Source: a virus
Taxonomy: Duplodnaviria > Heunggongvirae > Uroviricota > Caudoviricetes
Direction: 5' to 3' (one strand)
Length of the DNA: 58,841 bases
IMG/VR virus record: IMGVR_UViG_3300023371_000069
Shown piece by piece: positions 2,218 to 58,392 of this stretch. The notes under the pieces are model-generated. The model saw only the letters and a program-made list of their open reading frames with translations, made no database searches and was not told where the DNA came from. The position numbers and the translations under genes were made by a program. How positions within the stretch are numbered: the first letter of the stretch is position 1; every line of letters begins with the position of its first letter.

Positions 2218-2432
2218 TTATTGCTATTTTATGGGCAATCATGTCACTCCTGGTGATGATTCAATATGCACCAGCCTGTAAAGATTTAAATTGGAAAGAC
2301 CAATTAATCGTAGGCATTATCTTTATTATTGGCGGTCCAATATTCGCGGCCGCAAATGTACTTGAAGCAATTTTAGACTGTATTTTACCGGAAGGGTGGG
2401 GGGATGACGACGATGGTCCTTGGAAATATTAA
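2199..2432 (+). CDS. small membrane protein
   Basis: In-frame ATG with GGAAGGA upstream. It has two predicted transmembrane helices and an acidic C-terminus. Confidence 0.4.
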   Translation: METSGLIIAILWAIMSLLVMIQYAPACKDLNWKDQLIVGIIFIIGGPIFAAANVLEAILDCILPEGWGDDDDGPWKY

Positions 2433-3216
2433 AGAATATACTAAAGCACTGAAAGAACAATTTAAAGACCGCATTACCGCAATTGGTGATGCACCTAAGT
2501 TAGCAATTATCCAAGTTGGAAATGTAGAAGCATCAAATCGTTATATCAAAAACAAAGTGAAAGATTGTGAAGAGGTCGGTATCATTGCTGATGTTTATCA
2601 ATATCCAGAGGATATTACTGAACATGAGCTATGTGAAAATATCAAGCTCGACCAGGAACACTATGACGGCGTTATAGTGCAACTACCACTCCCACCTCAT
2701 ATCCGCGAGAAGGTCGTGGTTGCCGCAATCAATCCTTTGAAGGATGTTGATGGATTTCATCCAGATAGTCCTTATGACCCAGCAACTCCCGCAGGCATCA
2801 TGAAATATCTTCGTGCTTGCGATTACGACGTTGCGGGACGCGACGTCGTAATCATTGGTCGCAGTAATATTGTTGGTAAGCCTTTGGCGAGAATGATGAC
2901 AGACGCAGATGCGACAGTAACTCTTTGCCACAGTAAATCAAAATTGTCACATCATTTGTATGGGGCTGACCTGATTGTCACAGCAGTAGGTAAAGCAGGC
3001 TTTTTAAATTGCTACCCAATTCATGTGCCTGTTATTGACGTCGGCATTAACTTTGTAACAGATGCTGAAGGCAGAAGCCGACTTGTCGGCGATGCCTTCA
3101 ATACAGAAGGACGAGATGTAACACCAGTTCCAGGAGGGGTCGGTCTTTTGACCAGATGCGCACTTTTGGAGAATGTAATTGATGCGAAAGCAAGGGTGAG
3201 TTTAAAACGTGGATAA
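2404..3216 (+). CDS. folD: bifunctional 5,10-methylene-tetrahydrofolate dehydrogenase/cyclohydrolase
   Basis: 270 aa carrying FolD motifs: LAIIQVGN..AS..Y, DVDGFHP, TPAGIM, VIIGRSNIVGKP, VTAVGK, PVPGGVGLLT. Confidence 0.85.
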   Translation: MTTMVLGNIKEYTKALKEQFKDRITAIGDAPKLAIIQVGNVEASNRYIKNKVKDCEEVGIIADVYQYPEDITEHELCENIKLDQEHYDGVIVQLPLPPHIREKVVVAAINPLKDVDGFHPDSPYDPATPAGIMKYLRACDYDVAGRDVVIIGRSNIVGKPLARMMTDADATVTLCHSKSKLSHHLYGADLIVTAVGKAGFLNCYPIHVPVIDVGINFVTDAEGRSRLVGDAFNTEGRDVTPVPGGVGLLTRCALLENVIDAKARVSLKRG

Positions 3217-34982: not shown

Positions 34983-36065
34983 ATGTTAAGCGAATTTATG
35001 TTAAAAGTGAGAGACTTGCACGAGGAAATCAGACAGGTAGCTGAACTTCTGAAACCTCAAGAGATGAAAGACCGTATGGCTTATCTCGAAGCTAAGTTCA
35101 ACCACTCAACCTGGAATGAAATTCCAGAAGAGGAGCTGAAGGAATACTCTCGCCTCAAAAAGAAATATGATTTATATTTCGGTATCTGGAATATGTATGA
35201 TGACCTTAAAACTTTAACTGAGTATGCAATAGAGGAAGGCGAAGTCAACTATTTGCATGAATTTGAGATGGATTATAATTACCTCGTCGAGGAAATCCAA
35301 AAGCTCAAGTTAGAGTTAATGTTCACAGGTAAGTACGATTCCTGCAACGCCATTTTAAATATTCATTCTGGTGCCGGTGGTAAAGAAGCACAAGACTGGA
35401 CCAGAATGTTACTTCAGATGTATGCGGCCTGGGCTAGTAATCATGATTTTCAATTCAATATTTTGGATTGGCAAGATGGTGAAGATAGCTCAGTCGTGAA
35501 AAGTGTTTCGGTAGAAATCAGAGGAGAGAATGTATACGGCTTGCTGAACGCTGAGAATGGCGTCCATCGTTTGGTTCGCGTTTCTCCCTTTGATTCTCAA
35601 AATAGACGCCATACTTCATTCGCAGCAGTCGAAGTAATGCCTGAAATCGAGGCAGATAACTCTGTGGAACTCGATATGAAAGATGTTAGAGTTGATACTT
35701 TCCGTTCAAGCGGAAAAGGCGGTCAGCACGTCAATAAGACTGAATCTGCGATTAGATTAACACATATTCCTACTGGCATTGTGGTGGGGTGCCAGCAAGA
35801 GCGAAGTCAACATCAGAACAAAGAAAAAGCCATGAAGATGCTTATCTCAAGGCTGGTTGCTATTAAAGAAAAAGAACACTATGACAACTTGTCTGAAATT
35901 CAGGGCGAGCAGAGTCGAATCGAATGGGGCAACCAAATTCGTTCTTATGTCTTTATGCCATATCAAATGGTTAAAGACCACAGGACTAACCACCAAACTT
36001 CTAATATTGACGCAGTGATGCGTGGAGATATAGATGAATTCATTTTCAAGAGTCTCGCTGAATAA
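34983..36065 (+). CDS. prfB: peptide chain release factor 2 homologue
   Basis: RF2 'anticodon' motif SPF (RVSPFDSQNRRHTSFA). GGQ catalytic motif (RSSGKGGQHVNKTESAIRLTHIPTGIV). About 360 aa. SD GAGGAGG. Confidence 0.85.
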   Translation: MLSEFMLKVRDLHEEIRQVAELLKPQEMKDRMAYLEAKFNHSTWNEIPEEELKEYSRLKKKYDLYFGIWNMYDDLKTLTEYAIEEGEVNYLHEFEMDYNYLVEEIQKLKLELMFTGKYDSCNAILNIHSGAGGKEAQDWTRMLLQMYAAWASNHDFQFNILDWQDGEDSSVVKSVSVEIRGENVYGLLNAENGVHRLVRVSPFDSQNRRHTSFAAVEVMPEIEADNSVELDMKDVRVDTFRSSGKGGQHVNKTESAIRLTHIPTGIVVGCQQERSQHQNKEKAMKMLISRLVAIKEKEHYDNLSEIQGEQSRIEWGNQIRSYVFMPYQMVKDHRTNHQTSNIDAVMRGDIDEFIFKSLAE

Positions 36066-48502: not shown

Positions 48503-48579
48503 CGGAGTATAGCTCAGATGGTTAGAGCACCGTGCTGATAACGCGGGGGTCACTGGTTCGACTCCAGTTACTCCGACCA
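48503..48579 (+). tRNA. tRNA-Ile(GAU)
   Basis: Acceptor CGGAGTA/TACTCCG, loop CTGATAA, encoded CCA. Confidence 0.7.
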
Positions 48580-48606
48580 TATCACCAAGAAAGGAAAAGT
48601 GCAAAC

Positions 48607-49737
48607 ATGGGTATGAATGTTGTTCATTCCGGCGATACCTTCCAGATTTATGGTGACGCCCTAAAAACTTATGATAAATTACCAGTAGGCACATATGATG
48701 TGTGCTTCCATAAAATGATGGGTTTTTATTTAACTTCTCACGCAGACCTCGTTGTCAATGAAGAGAAGATTTATGGTTCAAGTCCTGCTAAGGTTGAAAA
48801 GGTTCTGCGTGGTTTCCAGGCAGTTGACCGCAACTTTGGCGTTATCCTTTCCGGTCGTAAGGGTATTGGTAAGTCTTTGTTCGCTCGTCAGCTTGCTGTT
48901 CGAGCAAAGGATTATAATCTTCCCCTTATCATCGTATCCTGCTATTACCCTGGAATTGCTGATTTCCTCAGCTCCATTGAGCAGGAAGTAATTGTGCTCT
49001 TCGACGAGTTTGAAAAGACTTTTGCCGACCAGGAGCACGCAAATCCGCAGGAAGATATGCTTCCTCTGTTCGACGGTATCGACAATGGTAAGAAGCTGTT
49101 CATTATCACTTGTAACGAAGTGCATAAGCTGAACTCTTATCTGATTAACCGTCCCGGTCGTTTCCATTATCATTTCGTTCTGGGTAATCCTAATCCCGAC
49201 GAAATCAAGGAGTATATGACCGATAAGTTAAATCCCGAGTACCATCACCTTATCAAAAAGCTGATTGGTTTCTCTCTGAATGTAGATTTGACTTATGACG
49301 TCCTCCGAGCAATCGCATTTGAGTTAAATATGGGTTATTCTTTCGAGGATACTCTCATGGACTTGAATATTAGCAAGGAAGGCACTCCTAAGTATAATAT
49401 CCGTGTTGAGTTTGCGGACGGTACCTACCGCGTGGTTAGTGGCCAGCGTGTGAATACTTACTCCAATGACCGTGTCTACTTCTGGTTTAACGACAAGAGT
49501 GGACGCTCTAGCGATTCCATTCGTTTGGAGTTTATTCCTTCCGACATTATCCTTGACATGGACCACGCCGAAATGACTCTTGACCCCTCCAAAGTTGAGA
49601 AGTATGTCGACGAGGACTACTTCGATATGGAGAAGCCCGAAGAGAAGAAGCGTTACGAGTATCTGTGTAATTTGGAAATCACCAAGATTACCTTTACTCG
49701 CGTAGTTGACGAGTATGCTTACAAGTATCTCGTTTAA
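48607..49737 (+). CDS. AAA+ family ATPase
   Basis: Walker A GRKGIGKS and Walker B IVLFDEF. 376 aa. ATG lies in frame inside track ORF 48532..49737. Confidence 0.6.
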   Translation: MGMNVVHSGDTFQIYGDALKTYDKLPVGTYDVCFHKMMGFYLTSHADLVVNEEKIYGSSPAKVEKVLRGFQAVDRNFGVILSGRKGIGKSLFARQLAVRAKDYNLPLIIVSCYYPGIADFLSSIEQEVIVLFDEFEKTFADQEHANPQEDMLPLFDGIDNGKKLFIITCNEVHKLNSYLINRPGRFHYHFVLGNPNPDEIKEYMTDKLNPEYHHLIKKLIGFSLNVDLTYDVLRAIAFELNMGYSFEDTLMDLNISKEGTPKYNIRVEFADGTYRVVSGQRVNTYSNDRVYFWFNDKSGRSSDSIRLEFIPSDIILDMDHAEMTLDPSKVEKYVDEDYFDMEKPEEKKRYEYLCNLEITKITFTRVVDEYAYKYLV

Positions 49738-51353: not shown

Positions 51354-51361
51354 TCTTTATT

Positions 51362-51437
51362 GGGGATTAGAATAAAGGCAGTTCCGCGGGCTTTGACCCC
51401 GTGTGTGTAGTGGTTCGAATCCACTATCCCCAGCCAG
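51362..51437 (+). tRNA. tRNA-Gln(UUG)
   Basis: Acceptor TGGGGAT/ATCCCCA (U1:A72), disc G, loop CTTTGAC, encoded CCA. Confidence 0.7.
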
Positions 51438-51505: not shown

Positions 51506-51581
51506 TGGGGATTGGCGCAATTGGTAGCGCGGCAGACTCTGACTCTGATGGTTAAAGGTTCGAATCCTTTATCCCCAGCCA
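51506..51581 (+). tRNA. tRNA-Gln(CUG)
   Basis: Same acceptor as Gln(UUG). Loop CTCTGAC. Encoded CCA. Confidence 0.65.
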
Positions 51582-51793: not shown

Positions 51794-52630
51794 ATATATG
51801 TAAGGTTATGAGAAGAGTACACTTCCCTTTCGAGGATATATGATGATTCCAAGTGCGCCGGGTTCGTGGCTTAAGCCGATAAGTGAGAAAGATAAGGCGG
51901 CCGGTAAGAGGGTCTGTTGAAGGACTGTTTCTTTGACACTTGTTTCTCCTAAAATCTTAACCTTTTTAAGCAACCGATAACTGATAACCCTCCGCTGAAT
52001 AAGCCTGGTGGTTGCGATTTCGACTAATATCAGTTTGAACCTTGAAAAGTTTGCATCTCGGTGAAGAGCGAATCCCATCGTGCCGAGAACCCAATCCTGC
52101 CTGCGGGCGCCAGGAGTCCGAAATAATTTTGTCGACGATAGCCGGCAATAGGTAGAGGGCTTGCGTTGTGAAGCGTGAGTTCCGCCTCAGAACTGAGGTC
52201 CTGGATGGAGGGGTGTGCAATCATAACCGCATCTAAAAACACTGTCTCGTCGCTTCCGCAATAGACGCCCCTGTGGGGAATAAGCCATGTTAGGGTTTAG
52301 CTGGTGACTGTACCAAACCATGGTAGACCAATAAGGAAGTTTGCGTTGATGACCGGGTGACCGGCCTATAAGACGAGGTTGTGGTACGAGTAGCCCAATC
52401 GCAAAGAACATTAATGCTTGATGATTTAGTTGGTTATTATCAAATATTTCTGAATGGCGGGTGAAAGTTGCAGGCAATCATTCCTGCATGGGACTTGGTC
52501 GAAAGACTGGGGCCGGAAGTTAGGGGTCGCTCCCCGAAGCTCAGACCGTGTCTCCCCATTGGTTGAATATAGGTGAAGGTTAAACAGAGTGTATGGCGAA
52601 GGTCAGCAAACTTTTCAAGATTCTAAATAT

Positions 52631-52769
52631 GAGCCGTTGGCGGAATTGGTAGACGCACCGGACCGGAATGAAATAGTGTCTTGGTCTAAAACGCTAACAG
52701 CAAGTAAAATCGGACTTAAAATCCGGCGCCTTAGTTGGCATCTTGGTTCAAGTCCAAGGCGGCTCACCA
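52631..52769 (+). tRNA. tRNA-Leu(UAA), type II, carrying a roughly 54-nt insertion between the D-arm and anticodon arm
   Basis: Acceptor GAGCCGT/GCGGCTC, anticodon arm TCGGA/CTTAAAA/TCCGG, T-arm CTTGG/TTCAAGT/CCAAG, encoded CCA. The insertion (about 52658-52712) is flanked by a CCGGA/TCGGA direct repeat and contains AACAGCAAG. Confidence 0.4.
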
Positions 52770-56433: not shown

Positions 56434-56508
56434 TGGGGTGTCGTTCAAAGGTTAGGACCGCGGTCTCTAAAATCGCAGATGTCAGTTCGATTCTGACCGC
56501 CCCCGCCA
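56434..56508 (+). tRNA. amber suppressor tRNA-Sup(CUA), type I, Gln-like
   Basis: Acceptor TGGGGTG/CGCCCCC (weak 1:72 pair), disc G, D-arm GTTC/AAAGGTTA/GGAC, anticodon arm GCGGT/CTCTAAA/ATCGC, T-arm GTCAG/TTCGATT/CTGAC, encoded CCA. Same architecture as the Gln tRNAs at 51362 and 51506. Confidence 0.7.
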
Positions 56509-56605
56509 TGGGGTGTATTCTAATGGTAAGAAAAGAGTCTCTAAAACTCCAGGAAGCACGGCTCTGACCCGTGATGTGGGGGTTCGAATCCCTCCACCCC
56601 AGCCA
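56509..56605 (+). tRNA. second tRNA-Sup(CUA), type II (long variable arm, G73, Ser-like)
   Basis: Acceptor TGGGGTG/CACCCCA, anticodon arm (A)GAGT/CTCTAAA/ACTC(C), 27-nt variable arm with a CACGG/CTCTGAC/CCGTG hairpin, T-arm GGGGG/TTCGAAT/CCCTC, encoded CCA. Abuts the previous tRNA with no spacer. Confidence 0.55.
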
Positions 56606-57979: not shown

Positions 57980-58392
57980 GGGTCAAGTGTGAGAAAGTTC
58001 ATTGGCATCGCTGACGGTAAATGGCAATCTATGTGAAAGGGCCTAAGTAGCATAGTGCGCAAGCATCTCGTAGTTCAGTCGTTGGAGAATCTTAAAGAGC
58101 AACGGATTTCTTGGTTAGGCCAATCAAGAAAGAGGAATTCTGTCGTTAAGTTCCTAATAAAGAAAGCGACACAGCGGGGGTACTATGTGCGAAGAATAGT
58201 ACGCCCCGCATCCCATCTAAACCGGTCTTGCCTTGTGCACTGGGAGAAATTCCTCAAGACCGCCTCATACTGAGGGTACGATTAAGGTTTTACAGTAGGG
58301 ACTAAGTGGCAATCGTGTAACAGGAAATCTGACACGACCTAAGCCCTAAAATTAGCCTTAATCATTGTTTTTTCTAATCCAAAAATCTTTTT

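Follow-up and report, generated by a model that had tools for sequence, protein, structure and literature searches.

What is a copy of the anticodon arm of a glutamine tRNA doing in the variable region of an amber suppressor? The question is raised by a 97-nt tRNA gene, which we call Sup2, in IMG/VR virus record IMGVR_UViG_3300023371_000069 (Caudoviricetes); the whole 58,841-nt sequence that we analysed is referred to as the window. Sup2 is best described as a tRNA with two tandem anticodon arms. The first has the anticodon CUA, and the second, which lies between the first and the T arm, has the glutamine anticodon CUG at the centre of its loop. Our preferred explanation, to which we give a probability of roughly 0.6, treats the second arm as a pseudo-anticodon, or identity element, through which glutaminyl-tRNA synthetase (GlnRS) would charge an amber suppressor that has lost G36. 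The proposal comes from comparison. Namely, in three separate tRNA families, the triplet in the second arm matches the amino acid that is expected for the decoding anticodon.

Two anticodon arms on a glutamine-like body

Sup2 and its parts are as follows (the basis of each assignment is in parentheses):

56509..56605, + strand: Sup2, 97-nt amber-suppressor tRNA with two anticodon-type arms in tandem and an encoded CCA (ARAGORN; Rfam RF00005, 54.2 bits; five-arm cloverleaf as the minimum-free-energy fold)
From 56509, + strand: acceptor 5' strand UGGGGUG, followed by UA (sequence)
56518..56532, + strand: D arm, UUCU (56518-56521), 7-nt loop AAUGGUA, AGAA (56529-56532); type-I-like, with U10-A25 (sequence, Rfam model)
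56534..56550, + strand: decoding arm AGAGU-CUCUAAA-ACUCC, with an A27.C43 mismatch (sequence, ARAGORN, Rfam model)
56551..56556, + strand: linker AGGAAG, with GGAA at 56552-56555 (sequence, pairing analysis)
56557..56573, + strand: second or putative pseudo-anticodon arm CACGG-CUCUGAC-CCGUG, loop at 56562-56568, Gln triplet CUG at 56564-56566 (fold; conserved, with covarying stems)
56574..56577, + strand: spacer AUGU before the T stem, of ordinary variable-loop length (sequence)
56578..56605, + strand: T arm GGGGG-UUCGAAU-CCCUC, acceptor 3' strand CACCCCA, G73 (56602) and CCA (56603-56605) (sequence, Rfam model)

ARAGORN and the Rfam tRNA model agree that the anticodon of Sup2 is CUA (56541-56543), and a single A lies between the D arm and the decoding arm. 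The 27-nt variable region (56551-56577) reads AGGAAG / CACGG CUCUGAC CCGUG / AUGU. An earlier note on this DNA had described its fold, and the description is correct to the base: the hairpin (5 bp with a 7-nt loop) is present in the minimum-free-energy fold and is the sole internal helix that is kept in the centroid, and no alternative fold loses it. The fold energy of Sup2 is not significant by itself (z = −0.16), which is usual for tRNAs.

The earlier note had also pointed out that the loop of this hairpin is identical to the anticodon loop of a tRNA-Gln gene of the window, and had concluded that the hairpin mimics a tRNA-Gln anticodon arm. This is borne out. Three other tRNA genes of the window are involved:

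51506..51581, + strand: tRNA-Gln(CUG), anticodon loop CUCUGAC (ARAGORN)
51361..51436, + strand: tRNA-Gln(UUG), anticodon loop CUUUGAC (ARAGORN)
56434..56508, + strand: Sup1, an ordinary 75-nt type I CUA suppressor with a U1.C72 mismatch, G73 and an encoded CCA; it abuts Sup2 with no spacer (ARAGORN; Rfam, 47.1 bits)

The loop of the second arm matches that of tRNA-Gln(CUG) exactly (7 of 7) and differs from that of tRNA-Gln(UUG) by one base. The chance of one such 7/7 match is about 6e-5 per loop, or about 2e-3 over 39 tRNA loops. We consider the resemblance to be more than chance because the Gln triplet recurs in the homologues (see below), not because of this single match.

Sup2 also resembles a chimera. 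Its 5' part is closest to Sup1 (77%) among the tRNAs of the window, and from the second arm onward its best matches are the two tRNA-Gln genes (76% for both, which makes them the top two among 38), with a small margin over unrelated window tRNAs. If positions 21-43 of Sup2 (23 nt) are removed, then ARAGORN recognizes the remaining 74 nt as tRNA-Gln(CUG), with a perfect 5-bp anticodon stem and a 4-nt variable loop. If positions 43-65 (also 23 nt) are removed, then it recognizes a canonical 74-nt CUA tRNA.

The body that carries the two arms is glutamine-like. The acceptor end of Sup2 has the glutamine set (U1-A72, G2-C71, G3-C70, and G73), which is common to Sup1 and both tRNA-Gln genes. The full identity set for E. 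coli GlnRS comprises a weak 1:72 pair, G2-C71, G3-C70, G73, U35 and G36 in the anticodon, and G10 (PMC9976931). The decoding anticodon of Sup2 has U35 but A36, and the second arm offers C34, U35, G36, and A37.

The view of Sup2 as a type II tRNA on a Ser-like scaffold, which the earlier note had taken, did not hold up. The one type II trait of Sup2 is a long variable region (above about 10 nt) with a stem-loop. Its D arm has a 4-bp stem and a 7-nt loop, not the long loop (of the GAGUGG.. type) of a type II D arm, and 25 nt precede the anticodon stem, versus 27-28 nt in the genuine type II CUA tRNAs from the same scans. The 214 Ser, Leu, and Tyr tRNAs that served as controls, from the same retrieved loci, have variable arms with 3-6-nt loops (the mode is 4) and 0-2 unpaired nucleotides before the T stem; the 0-2-nt spacer is seen in 92% of them and a 7-nt loop in only 6. 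In contrast, the second arms of Sup2 and its relatives have a 7-nt loop and a 3' spacer of 3-7 nt (4 nt in Sup2). In other words, this arm is built as an anticodon arm and is followed by a normal variable loop.

Several other identities were considered and rejected. ARAGORN labels Sup2 as tRNA-Pyl, which reflects the CUA anticodon only. tRNA-Pyl has a 3-nt variable loop, a small D loop, and a 6-bp anticodon stem, whereas in Sup2 the variable region is 27 nt long, the D loop is normal, and the anticodon stem has 4-5 bp. Sup2 is not a tRNA-Sec or an allo-tRNA (8/5, 8/4, or 9/3, with a long D stem) as it is 7/5 with a 4-bp D stem, and the true tRNA-Sec that our opal scans recovered look different from it and lack a CCA pseudo-anticodon. 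Finally, we rejected an intron because conservation keeps both the hairpin form of the arm and a specific triplet, and because no bacterial mechanism for such an intron is known.

The second arm in three tRNA families

A BLAST comparison of Sup1 and Sup2 to an annotated phage collection gave Phass-1 as the sole match (70% identity). Phass-1 uses code 15 and carries the same tandem Sup1 and Sup2 pair, annotated merely as tRNA-Sup-CTA. The variable region of its second suppressor is U AUUCC-CUCUGAA-GGGGU UGU, so the stem differs from that of Sup2 but the loop core is the same. (The U1.C72 mismatch of Sup1 is also found in the Phass-1 counterpart and in related contigs, such as locus L001, 1501-1575.) The remaining homologues were found with structure-anchored patterns in IMG/VR, metagenomes, and bins of metagenome-assembled genomes (MAGs), and ARAGORN was run on the loci. 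For CUA tRNAs, the only elements fixed in the patterns were the loop with the CUA anticodon, the T loop, and a long spacing; the pseudo-anticodon motif was not used. The scans for CUA, UCA, and UAU tRNAs were each limited to particular anticodon-loop and T-loop sequences, and our counts for these families are among the matches listed.

The long-arm CUA tRNAs are of two kinds. Some have type II bodies and small loops (such as GAAA), and none of these has a Gln triplet or another pseudo-anticodon triplet. The others have type-I-like bodies, and all of these keep a weak or mismatched 1:72 pair, G2-C71, and G73. Among the 44 distinct type-I-like sequences, 42 have CUG or UUG centred in a 7-nt loop with at least 2 flanking base pairs. 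All 42 have U35 and G36; position 34 is occupied by C (37 sequences) or U (5 sequences), both of which give Gln anticodons; A37 is present in 41 and U33 in 36. The stem columns are variable and carry little information, so that only the loop core N-U-YUG-A-N is conserved. The long-arm ochre (UUA) tRNAs that we scanned did not have a pseudo-anticodon either. As a separate observation, single type-II-bodied CUA tRNAs without a pseudo-anticodon are found in MAGs of Acidobacteriota and Thermoguttaceae, apparently outside of tRNA arrays (L504, L507, L513, L522, L525, L528, L531, L532, L535, L540, and L541).

The stems of the second arms covary. In an alignment of 32 sequences, the two inner pairs are formed in all 32, with exchanges among CG, GC, AU, and UA, and the third pair is formed in 23. 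Because inner pairing was a selection criterion, only the exchanges at these pairs count as evidence. The covariation score is 0.516, versus 0.18 ± 0.04 for shuffled alignments (0 of 500 reach the observed score) and 0.10-0.16 for slid registers. Relatives with the 27-nt variable region of Sup2 include L043, with a compensatory change in the stem from CACGG/CCGUG to UACGG/CCGUA; L116 and L037, both of which are mis-called by ARAGORN; about 15 metagenome variants; and L511, L526, and L527 from MAG bins of Acutalibacteraceae, Oscillospiraceae, and Faecalibacterium, which hint weakly at a host among the Clostridia. The linker GGAAG is nearly invariant across the relatives while the adjoining stems vary. 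The mimicry need not extend to the whole loop: at only 2 of 8 loci is the pseudo loop identical (7/7) to the anticodon loop of a co-resident tRNA-Gln.

A second family turned up among opal suppressors. The opal scan gave 77 distinct long-arm UCA tRNAs, and about two-thirds of them have bodies like tRNA-Trp (AGGGGC..., with A1-U72 and G73); the rest are ordinary tRNA-Sec. In the Trp-like UCA tRNAs, the variable region has a hairpin with the loop CUCCAAA or GUCCAAA, which is the anticodon loop of tRNA-Trp, with CCA at its centre (loci in the range L180-L382, for example L297, L313, L274, and L277). The ordinary tRNA-Sec from these scans do not have a CCA second arm.

The third family reads a sense codon. 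The UAU scan gave 73 distinct long-arm tRNAs, and nearly all of them have a hairpin whose loop is centred on GAU, with strongly covarying stems. The second-arm loops of these phage tRNA-Ile(UAU) include CAGAUUA, UAGAUAA, and others (L111, L125, L127, and L385-L501). In this family the mimicry concerns the triplet and not the whole loop. Indeed, the bases that flank the triplet copy the co-resident cognate loop in 13 of 13 Trp cases, but in just 2 of 8 Gln cases and 1 of 21 Ile cases. Three tRNA-Ile(UAU) are exceptions, with loops of the CUCACAA type (L030, L449, and L442).

To compare the families we used a motif-blind read-out: in each variable region, the hairpin with a 7-nt loop and the longest stem was chosen, and the central triplet of its loop was recorded. 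The results were:

CUA tRNAs (n = 54): YUG 33, CCA 1, GAU 0
UCA tRNAs (n = 76): YUG 2, CCA 39, GAU 0
UAU tRNAs (n = 73): YUG 0, CCA 2, GAU 63
Ser, Leu, and Tyr controls (n = 231): YUG 5, CCA 0, GAU 0

The association is very strong (P ~ 1e-52, chi-square test on the cross-table; 1e-23 to 1e-55 for each class against the controls, Fisher tests). The CUA, UCA, and UAU families are diverse: their distinct acceptor 7-mers number 24, 27, and 48, respectively, and single-linkage clustering at 80% body identity divides them into 7, 15, and 28 clusters. We propose to recognize members of a pseudo-anticodon family by a loop of about 7 nt, centred on the cognate standard anticodon, and a spacer of 3-7 nt, and Sup2 has all of these.

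Two kinds of unusual tRNAs were also seen. A tRNA-Trp(CCA) at L220 (2697-2788) has a long variable region with a hairpin loop, CUGAUCA, that is centred on GAU; this is a single case and may be due to chance. Also, some phage tRNAs with an Asn anticodon (GUU) are on type II bodies with long and ordinary variable arms (L174, L223, and L017).

How the second arm might be used

We propose that Sup2 is an amber suppressor derived from tRNA-Gln in which decoding and identity are split over two arms. The first arm (CUA) would read UAG on the ribosome. The second arm, as a copy of the Gln anticodon stem-loop (CUG), would supply the anticodon determinants that the first arm has lost, above all G36. Together with U1-A72, G2-C71, G3-C70, and G73, it would allow for efficient charging with glutamine by the host's GlnRS or by the corresponding Gln-charging enzyme. 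The phage would then read UAG as glutamine, and its release factor, RF2, would handle UAA and UGA. That a synthetase reads the second arm, and whether it does so in place or after the two arms swap, is something that we infer.

Restored recognition is the most economical reading because, in each family, the decoding anticodon differs from the standard anticodon at a position that the synthetase reads: CUG to CUA loses G36, CCA to UCA loses C34, and GAU to UAU loses G34. The anticodon is a major determinant for GlnRS, TrpRS, and IleRS; for glutamine, mutations of the determinants cost up to 1e4-1e5 in kcat, and G36 is involved in binding and recognition (PMC9976931). In an E. coli extract, phage tRNA-CUA inserted Gln in 28 of 29 tests and phage tRNA-UCA inserted Trp in 13 of 13 (preprint 10.1101/2025.10.30.685624, which does not mention the arm). 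The absence of a pseudo-anticodon from the CUA and UUA suppressors with type II bodies also fits the rule; enzymes of the Leu and Ser type do not read the anticodon.

If the second arm is read, then the arrangement of the arms gives a hint as to how. The decoding arm has the canonical spacing relative to the D arm, and the second arm has the canonical spacing relative to the T arm, which suggests an arm swap. GlnRS was reportedly found (by Rould and colleagues, in 1991) to hold the anticodon arm with 32-38 and 33-37 paired and with 34-36 splayed out. Many pseudo-anticodon arms can extend their stems likewise: for example, ViennaRNA folds UUCUGAG loops as a U.G pair, a U-A pair, and a CUG triloop.

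A number of points weigh against this proposal. One real difficulty is geometric: class I synthetases dock on the inner side of the L, from which the variable region points away, so an ordinary GlnRS should not reach the loop of the variable arm without a rearrangement. The closest experimental precedent, a synthetic pseudo-anticodon arm made by Mukai and colleagues, needed an added binding domain on the synthetase (PMC7590224). Plain CUA suppressors without the arm exist (Sup1 adjoins Sup2) and are known to be charged with Gln, so the second arm is not strictly required. Sup2 also lacks G10, which is a determinant for E. coli GlnRS; it has U10-A25 instead, while the pair is G10-C25 in Sup1 and in the window's two tRNA-Gln genes. 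The pseudo loops of the Ile family carry A33 and U37 and so depart from genuine Ile anticodon loops (CUGAUAA). Ancestry would by itself give a cognate triplet as well if a fusion with the cognate tRNA gave rise to each family, and our counts are of distinct sequences, not of independent lineages. Furthermore, the host of this phage may have GlnRS or may use the GluRS/GatCAB route to Gln-tRNA. As for the recoding itself, ORF (open reading frame) lengths under different sets of stop codons gave no clear signal of TAG, TGA, or TAA recoding in the window. No TAG-interrupted gene is evident there, and the long ORFs at 29-40 kb are standard-coded, without internal TAG. Finally, the proposed link from the second arm to charging is drawn from comparison.

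The rival explanations differ mainly in what they make of the conservation of the arm. It could be a functionless relic of fusion, unequal recombination, or partial duplication of a CUA suppressor gene and a tRNA-Gln gene, with the old Gln arm simply tolerated. The earlier note had suggested such a fossil, and as an origin this is quite possible: the two parts of Sup2 resemble Sup1 (77%) and the tRNA-Gln genes (76%), either 23-nt deletion leaves a complete tRNA, the linker bears a copy of the 3' strand of the D stem in the canonical register, Sup1 and Sup2 abut within a dense tRNA array where such events are likely, and ancestry alone would account for the cognate triplet. Yet a neutral leftover should have decayed or been deleted. 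Instead, across 42 distinct sequences, U35 and G36 never change and position 34 is limited to C or U, despite changes to the stems, linkers, acceptor stems, and arm lengths; the hairpin is maintained by compensatory exchanges; the linker GGAAG is nearly invariant amid varying stems; and the same pattern is kept in two further large families (Trp and Ile). A relic without function is thus improbable. We give no better odds to a binding partner other than a synthetase, such as an enzyme of tRNA modification, a phage regulator protein for the code switch, or, if the arm is a decoy or gives protection, a host anticodon nuclease or a tRNA-targeting defence system. The conserved loop and the covarying stem show only that some sequence-specific partner exists, and with A33 and U37 the Ile pseudo loop is not a faithful mimic for every enzyme that reads anticodon loops. 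However, such a partner must account for the match between triplet and amino acid in three families, for which the cognate synthetase is the simplest candidate, and no candidate gene was consistently linked at the loci examined, although linkage was not tested systematically. Of the earlier note's other suggestion, a decoy or recognition element, it is the recognition element that fits the comparative data best (an invariant YUG, covarying stems, and the Trp and Ile parallels). Least probable by far is that Sup2 is a substrate of SerRS (or LeuRS or TyrRS) and that UAG is read as serine. A long variable arm and G73 are serine determinants (PMC5389517), but the type I D arm, the glutamine set at the acceptor end, and the 7-nt loop with its 4-nt 3' spacer are unlike those of real type II tRNAs, the relatives of Sup2 include one in Phass-1, whose code 15 assigns TAG to Gln, and the phage tRNA-CUA tested in vitro inserted Gln in all but one of 29 tests (preprint 10.1101/2025.10.30.685624).

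A further possibility concerns the mechanism in the 27-nt subfamily to which Sup2 belongs: the tRNA might be bistable, with GlnRS charging one fold and the ribosome using another. Fold A has the D stem UUCU:AGAA, with the CUA arm at the anticodon position and the Gln arm as part of the variable region. Fold B has the D stem UUCU:GGAA and places the CUG arm at the anticodon position, with AUGU as the variable loop and the CUA hairpin in the D loop. GlnRS would charge fold B as tRNA-Gln(CUG) and the ribosome would use fold A at UAG; fold B might also be used at CAG, which would be harmless since both folds give Gln. Such a switch would solve the geometric problem of reading a variable arm. At offset −10 from the second loop, the linker has a 4-mer exactly in the place of a D-stem 3' strand, and this 4-mer pairs with the D-stem 5' strand in all of the D-stem variants found: UUCU with GGAA (or with AGAA in L574, still 4/4), GCUU with GAGC (4/4, versus 3/4 for the canonical partner), and GCUA with CAGC (3/4, the same as the canonical partner). 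In other pseudo-anticodon tRNAs, 4/4 pairing at any offset has a background of about 1-2%. The computed energies of the two folds are only 3 kcal/mol apart (−24.5 for fold B and −27.5 for fold A), and ARAGORN accepts the core of fold B as tRNA-Gln(CUG). Nevertheless, we consider the bistable tRNA to be unlikely, if somewhat less so than a relic. The commoner members with short linkers (the Phass type) and the Trp and Ile families are without a second D strand, so the bistable fold is not a general mechanism. One relative with a long linker (L569, AAUAAG) has no complementarity, and with just three D-stem types the covariation is thin and could reflect separate recent fusions. Also, a 23-nt hairpin inserted in the D loop may clash with the elbow of the tRNA or with GlnRS. 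We would put forward only tentatively, and with clearly less confidence than the pseudo-anticodon itself, the broader picture of a general phage device in which two-armed tRNAs use one arm for decoding (CUA, UCA, or UAU) and have the other (CUG or UUG, CCA, or GAU) bound by a class I synthetase, with the subfamily in the window being truly bistable.

Known systems and the context of the window

The pseudo-anticodon proposal has partial precedents. The supE-type suppressors of E. coli and the code-15 suppressors of phages (crAss-like, Lak, and Phass-1) are like Sup2 in that they have CUA on a glutamine-type body and are expected to be charged by GlnRS and to insert Gln at UAG; the phage suppressors are also encoded in a tRNA array, along with RF2. 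As described, they are ordinary type I tRNAs of 72-76 nt, whereas Sup2 adds a complete Gln anticodon arm. Papers on Phass-1, recoded phages, and theta ribozymes do not mention the extra arm. The type II tRNAs (Ser, Leu, and bacterial Tyr), tRNA-Sec, and allo-tRNAs share with Sup2 a stem-loop between the anticodon and T arms, which in Sup2 would, by hypothesis, likewise serve recognition by a synthetase. However, type II arms are recognized by their shape, length, and orientation, with a loop of 3-6 nt, a 3' spacer of 0-2 nt, and a type II D arm, while Sup2 has a 7-nt copy of an anticodon loop, a triplet that is conserved in sequence, a type I body, and a spacer that in its family is 3-7 nt.

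The nearest relative in concept is artificial. Mukai et al. (2020) placed a pseudo-anticodon arm with GUG (His) in the variable arm of an amber allo-tRNA, and histidylation increased in a triplet-dependent manner; the effect was modest and was seen only with a HisRS that carried an extra anticodon-binding domain (PMC7590224). The idea, of replacing the variable arm of an amber suppressor with the cognate anticodon arm so as to recruit the synthetase, is the same, but the arms of the Sup2 type are natural, widespread, and presumably served by unmodified host enzymes. Outside of tRNAs, hairpins that copy the cognate anticodon loop bind synthetases in the thrS operator of E. coli, in synthetase-bound mRNAs of yeast, and in viral tRNA-like structures (PMC9976931). 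These are regulatory or replication elements in mRNAs or genomes, and none is a second arm in a decoding tRNA. Nematodes are said to have variable-arm tRNAs, the nev-tRNAs, whose anticodon does not match their charging. As in Sup2, their identity is uncoupled from the decoding anticodon via the variable arm, but they are Leu-type type II tRNAs for an anticodon-blind enzyme and do not have a copy of an anticodon.

We did not find a description of natural tRNAs with a copy of the cognate anticodon in the variable region in the literature that we searched, which was mostly outside of subscription journals and covered Phass-1, recoded phages, theta ribozymes, novel cloverleaf tRNAs, a 2023 review of identity elements, and a 2025 metagenomic screen of suppressors. 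If confirmed, the principle that an extra arm gives a tRNA its identity by mimicking an anticodon, and does so for class I enzymes, would be new in nature. It would be a new kind of identity element, namely a copy of the anticodon outside of the anticodon position. It would also bear on the acknowledged question of how suppressors are charged. According to the preprint by Borges et al., synthetase genes are rare in recoding phages, and the suggestion made there is that these phages have to promote, in some way, a side reaction of the host's GlnRS or TrpRS; a second cognate arm would be a direct answer that is written in the tRNA itself. The principle would reach beyond stop codons, as an AUA-reading tRNA-Ile(UAU) could bypass the need for lysidine. 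The amino acid of a reassigned codon could be read from the tRNA gene via the triplet in the second arm. Finally, it would offer a natural design for efficient suppressor tRNAs in genetic code expansion and in therapeutic nonsense suppression, both of which are usually limited by the loss of anticodon recognition.

The last 18 kb of the window is filled by a phage-type tRNA array (39 ARAGORN calls, all on the + strand), and upstream of it is a release factor gene:

34983..36065, + strand: release factor gene of the RF2 type (PCRF and RF-1 domains; SPF and GGQ motifs)

This gene is consistent with a phage that reassigns UAG, and RF2 has also been reported for the TAG-recoded Lak and Agate phages (Borges et al. 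preprint). What points to recoding in the phage of the window is its context: the two CUA tRNAs, the RF2, and the presence of the tandem pair in Phass-1, which uses code 15. The RF2-type gene is one uninterrupted ORF, without the programmed frameshift that is usual in bacterial prfB. Under the standard bacterial code, long ORFs are scarce at 3000-29000, despite a G+C content of 44-48% and an AT skew that is strongly positive at 6-18 kb. Reading TAG, TGA, or TAA as a sense codon brings no clear return of long ORFs at 3-29 kb.

Within the tRNA array there is a full-length ROOL RNA (52033-52624, + strand; RF03087, 312.6 bits). Directly after it is a type II tRNA-Leu(UAA)-like gene (52631-52769, + strand) that is not called by ARAGORN; the Rfam tRNA model matches it (33.3 bits) only when 58 nt, inserted on the 5' side of the anticodon arm, are skipped, and a CCGGAC...UCGGAC repeat lies around the inserted sequence. 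This could be another tRNA with an inserted element, or a pseudogene. A partial match to the OLE RNA lies between two tRNA-Lys genes (58280-58363, + strand; RF01071, 53.5 bits versus a gathering threshold of 50 bits, covering model positions 439-592 only). The array also includes a gene for an AAA/STAND-type ATPase (48532-49737, + strand), and near the other end of the window is a gene for a FolD-like methylene-tetrahydrofolate dehydrogenase/cyclohydrolase (2404-3216, + strand).

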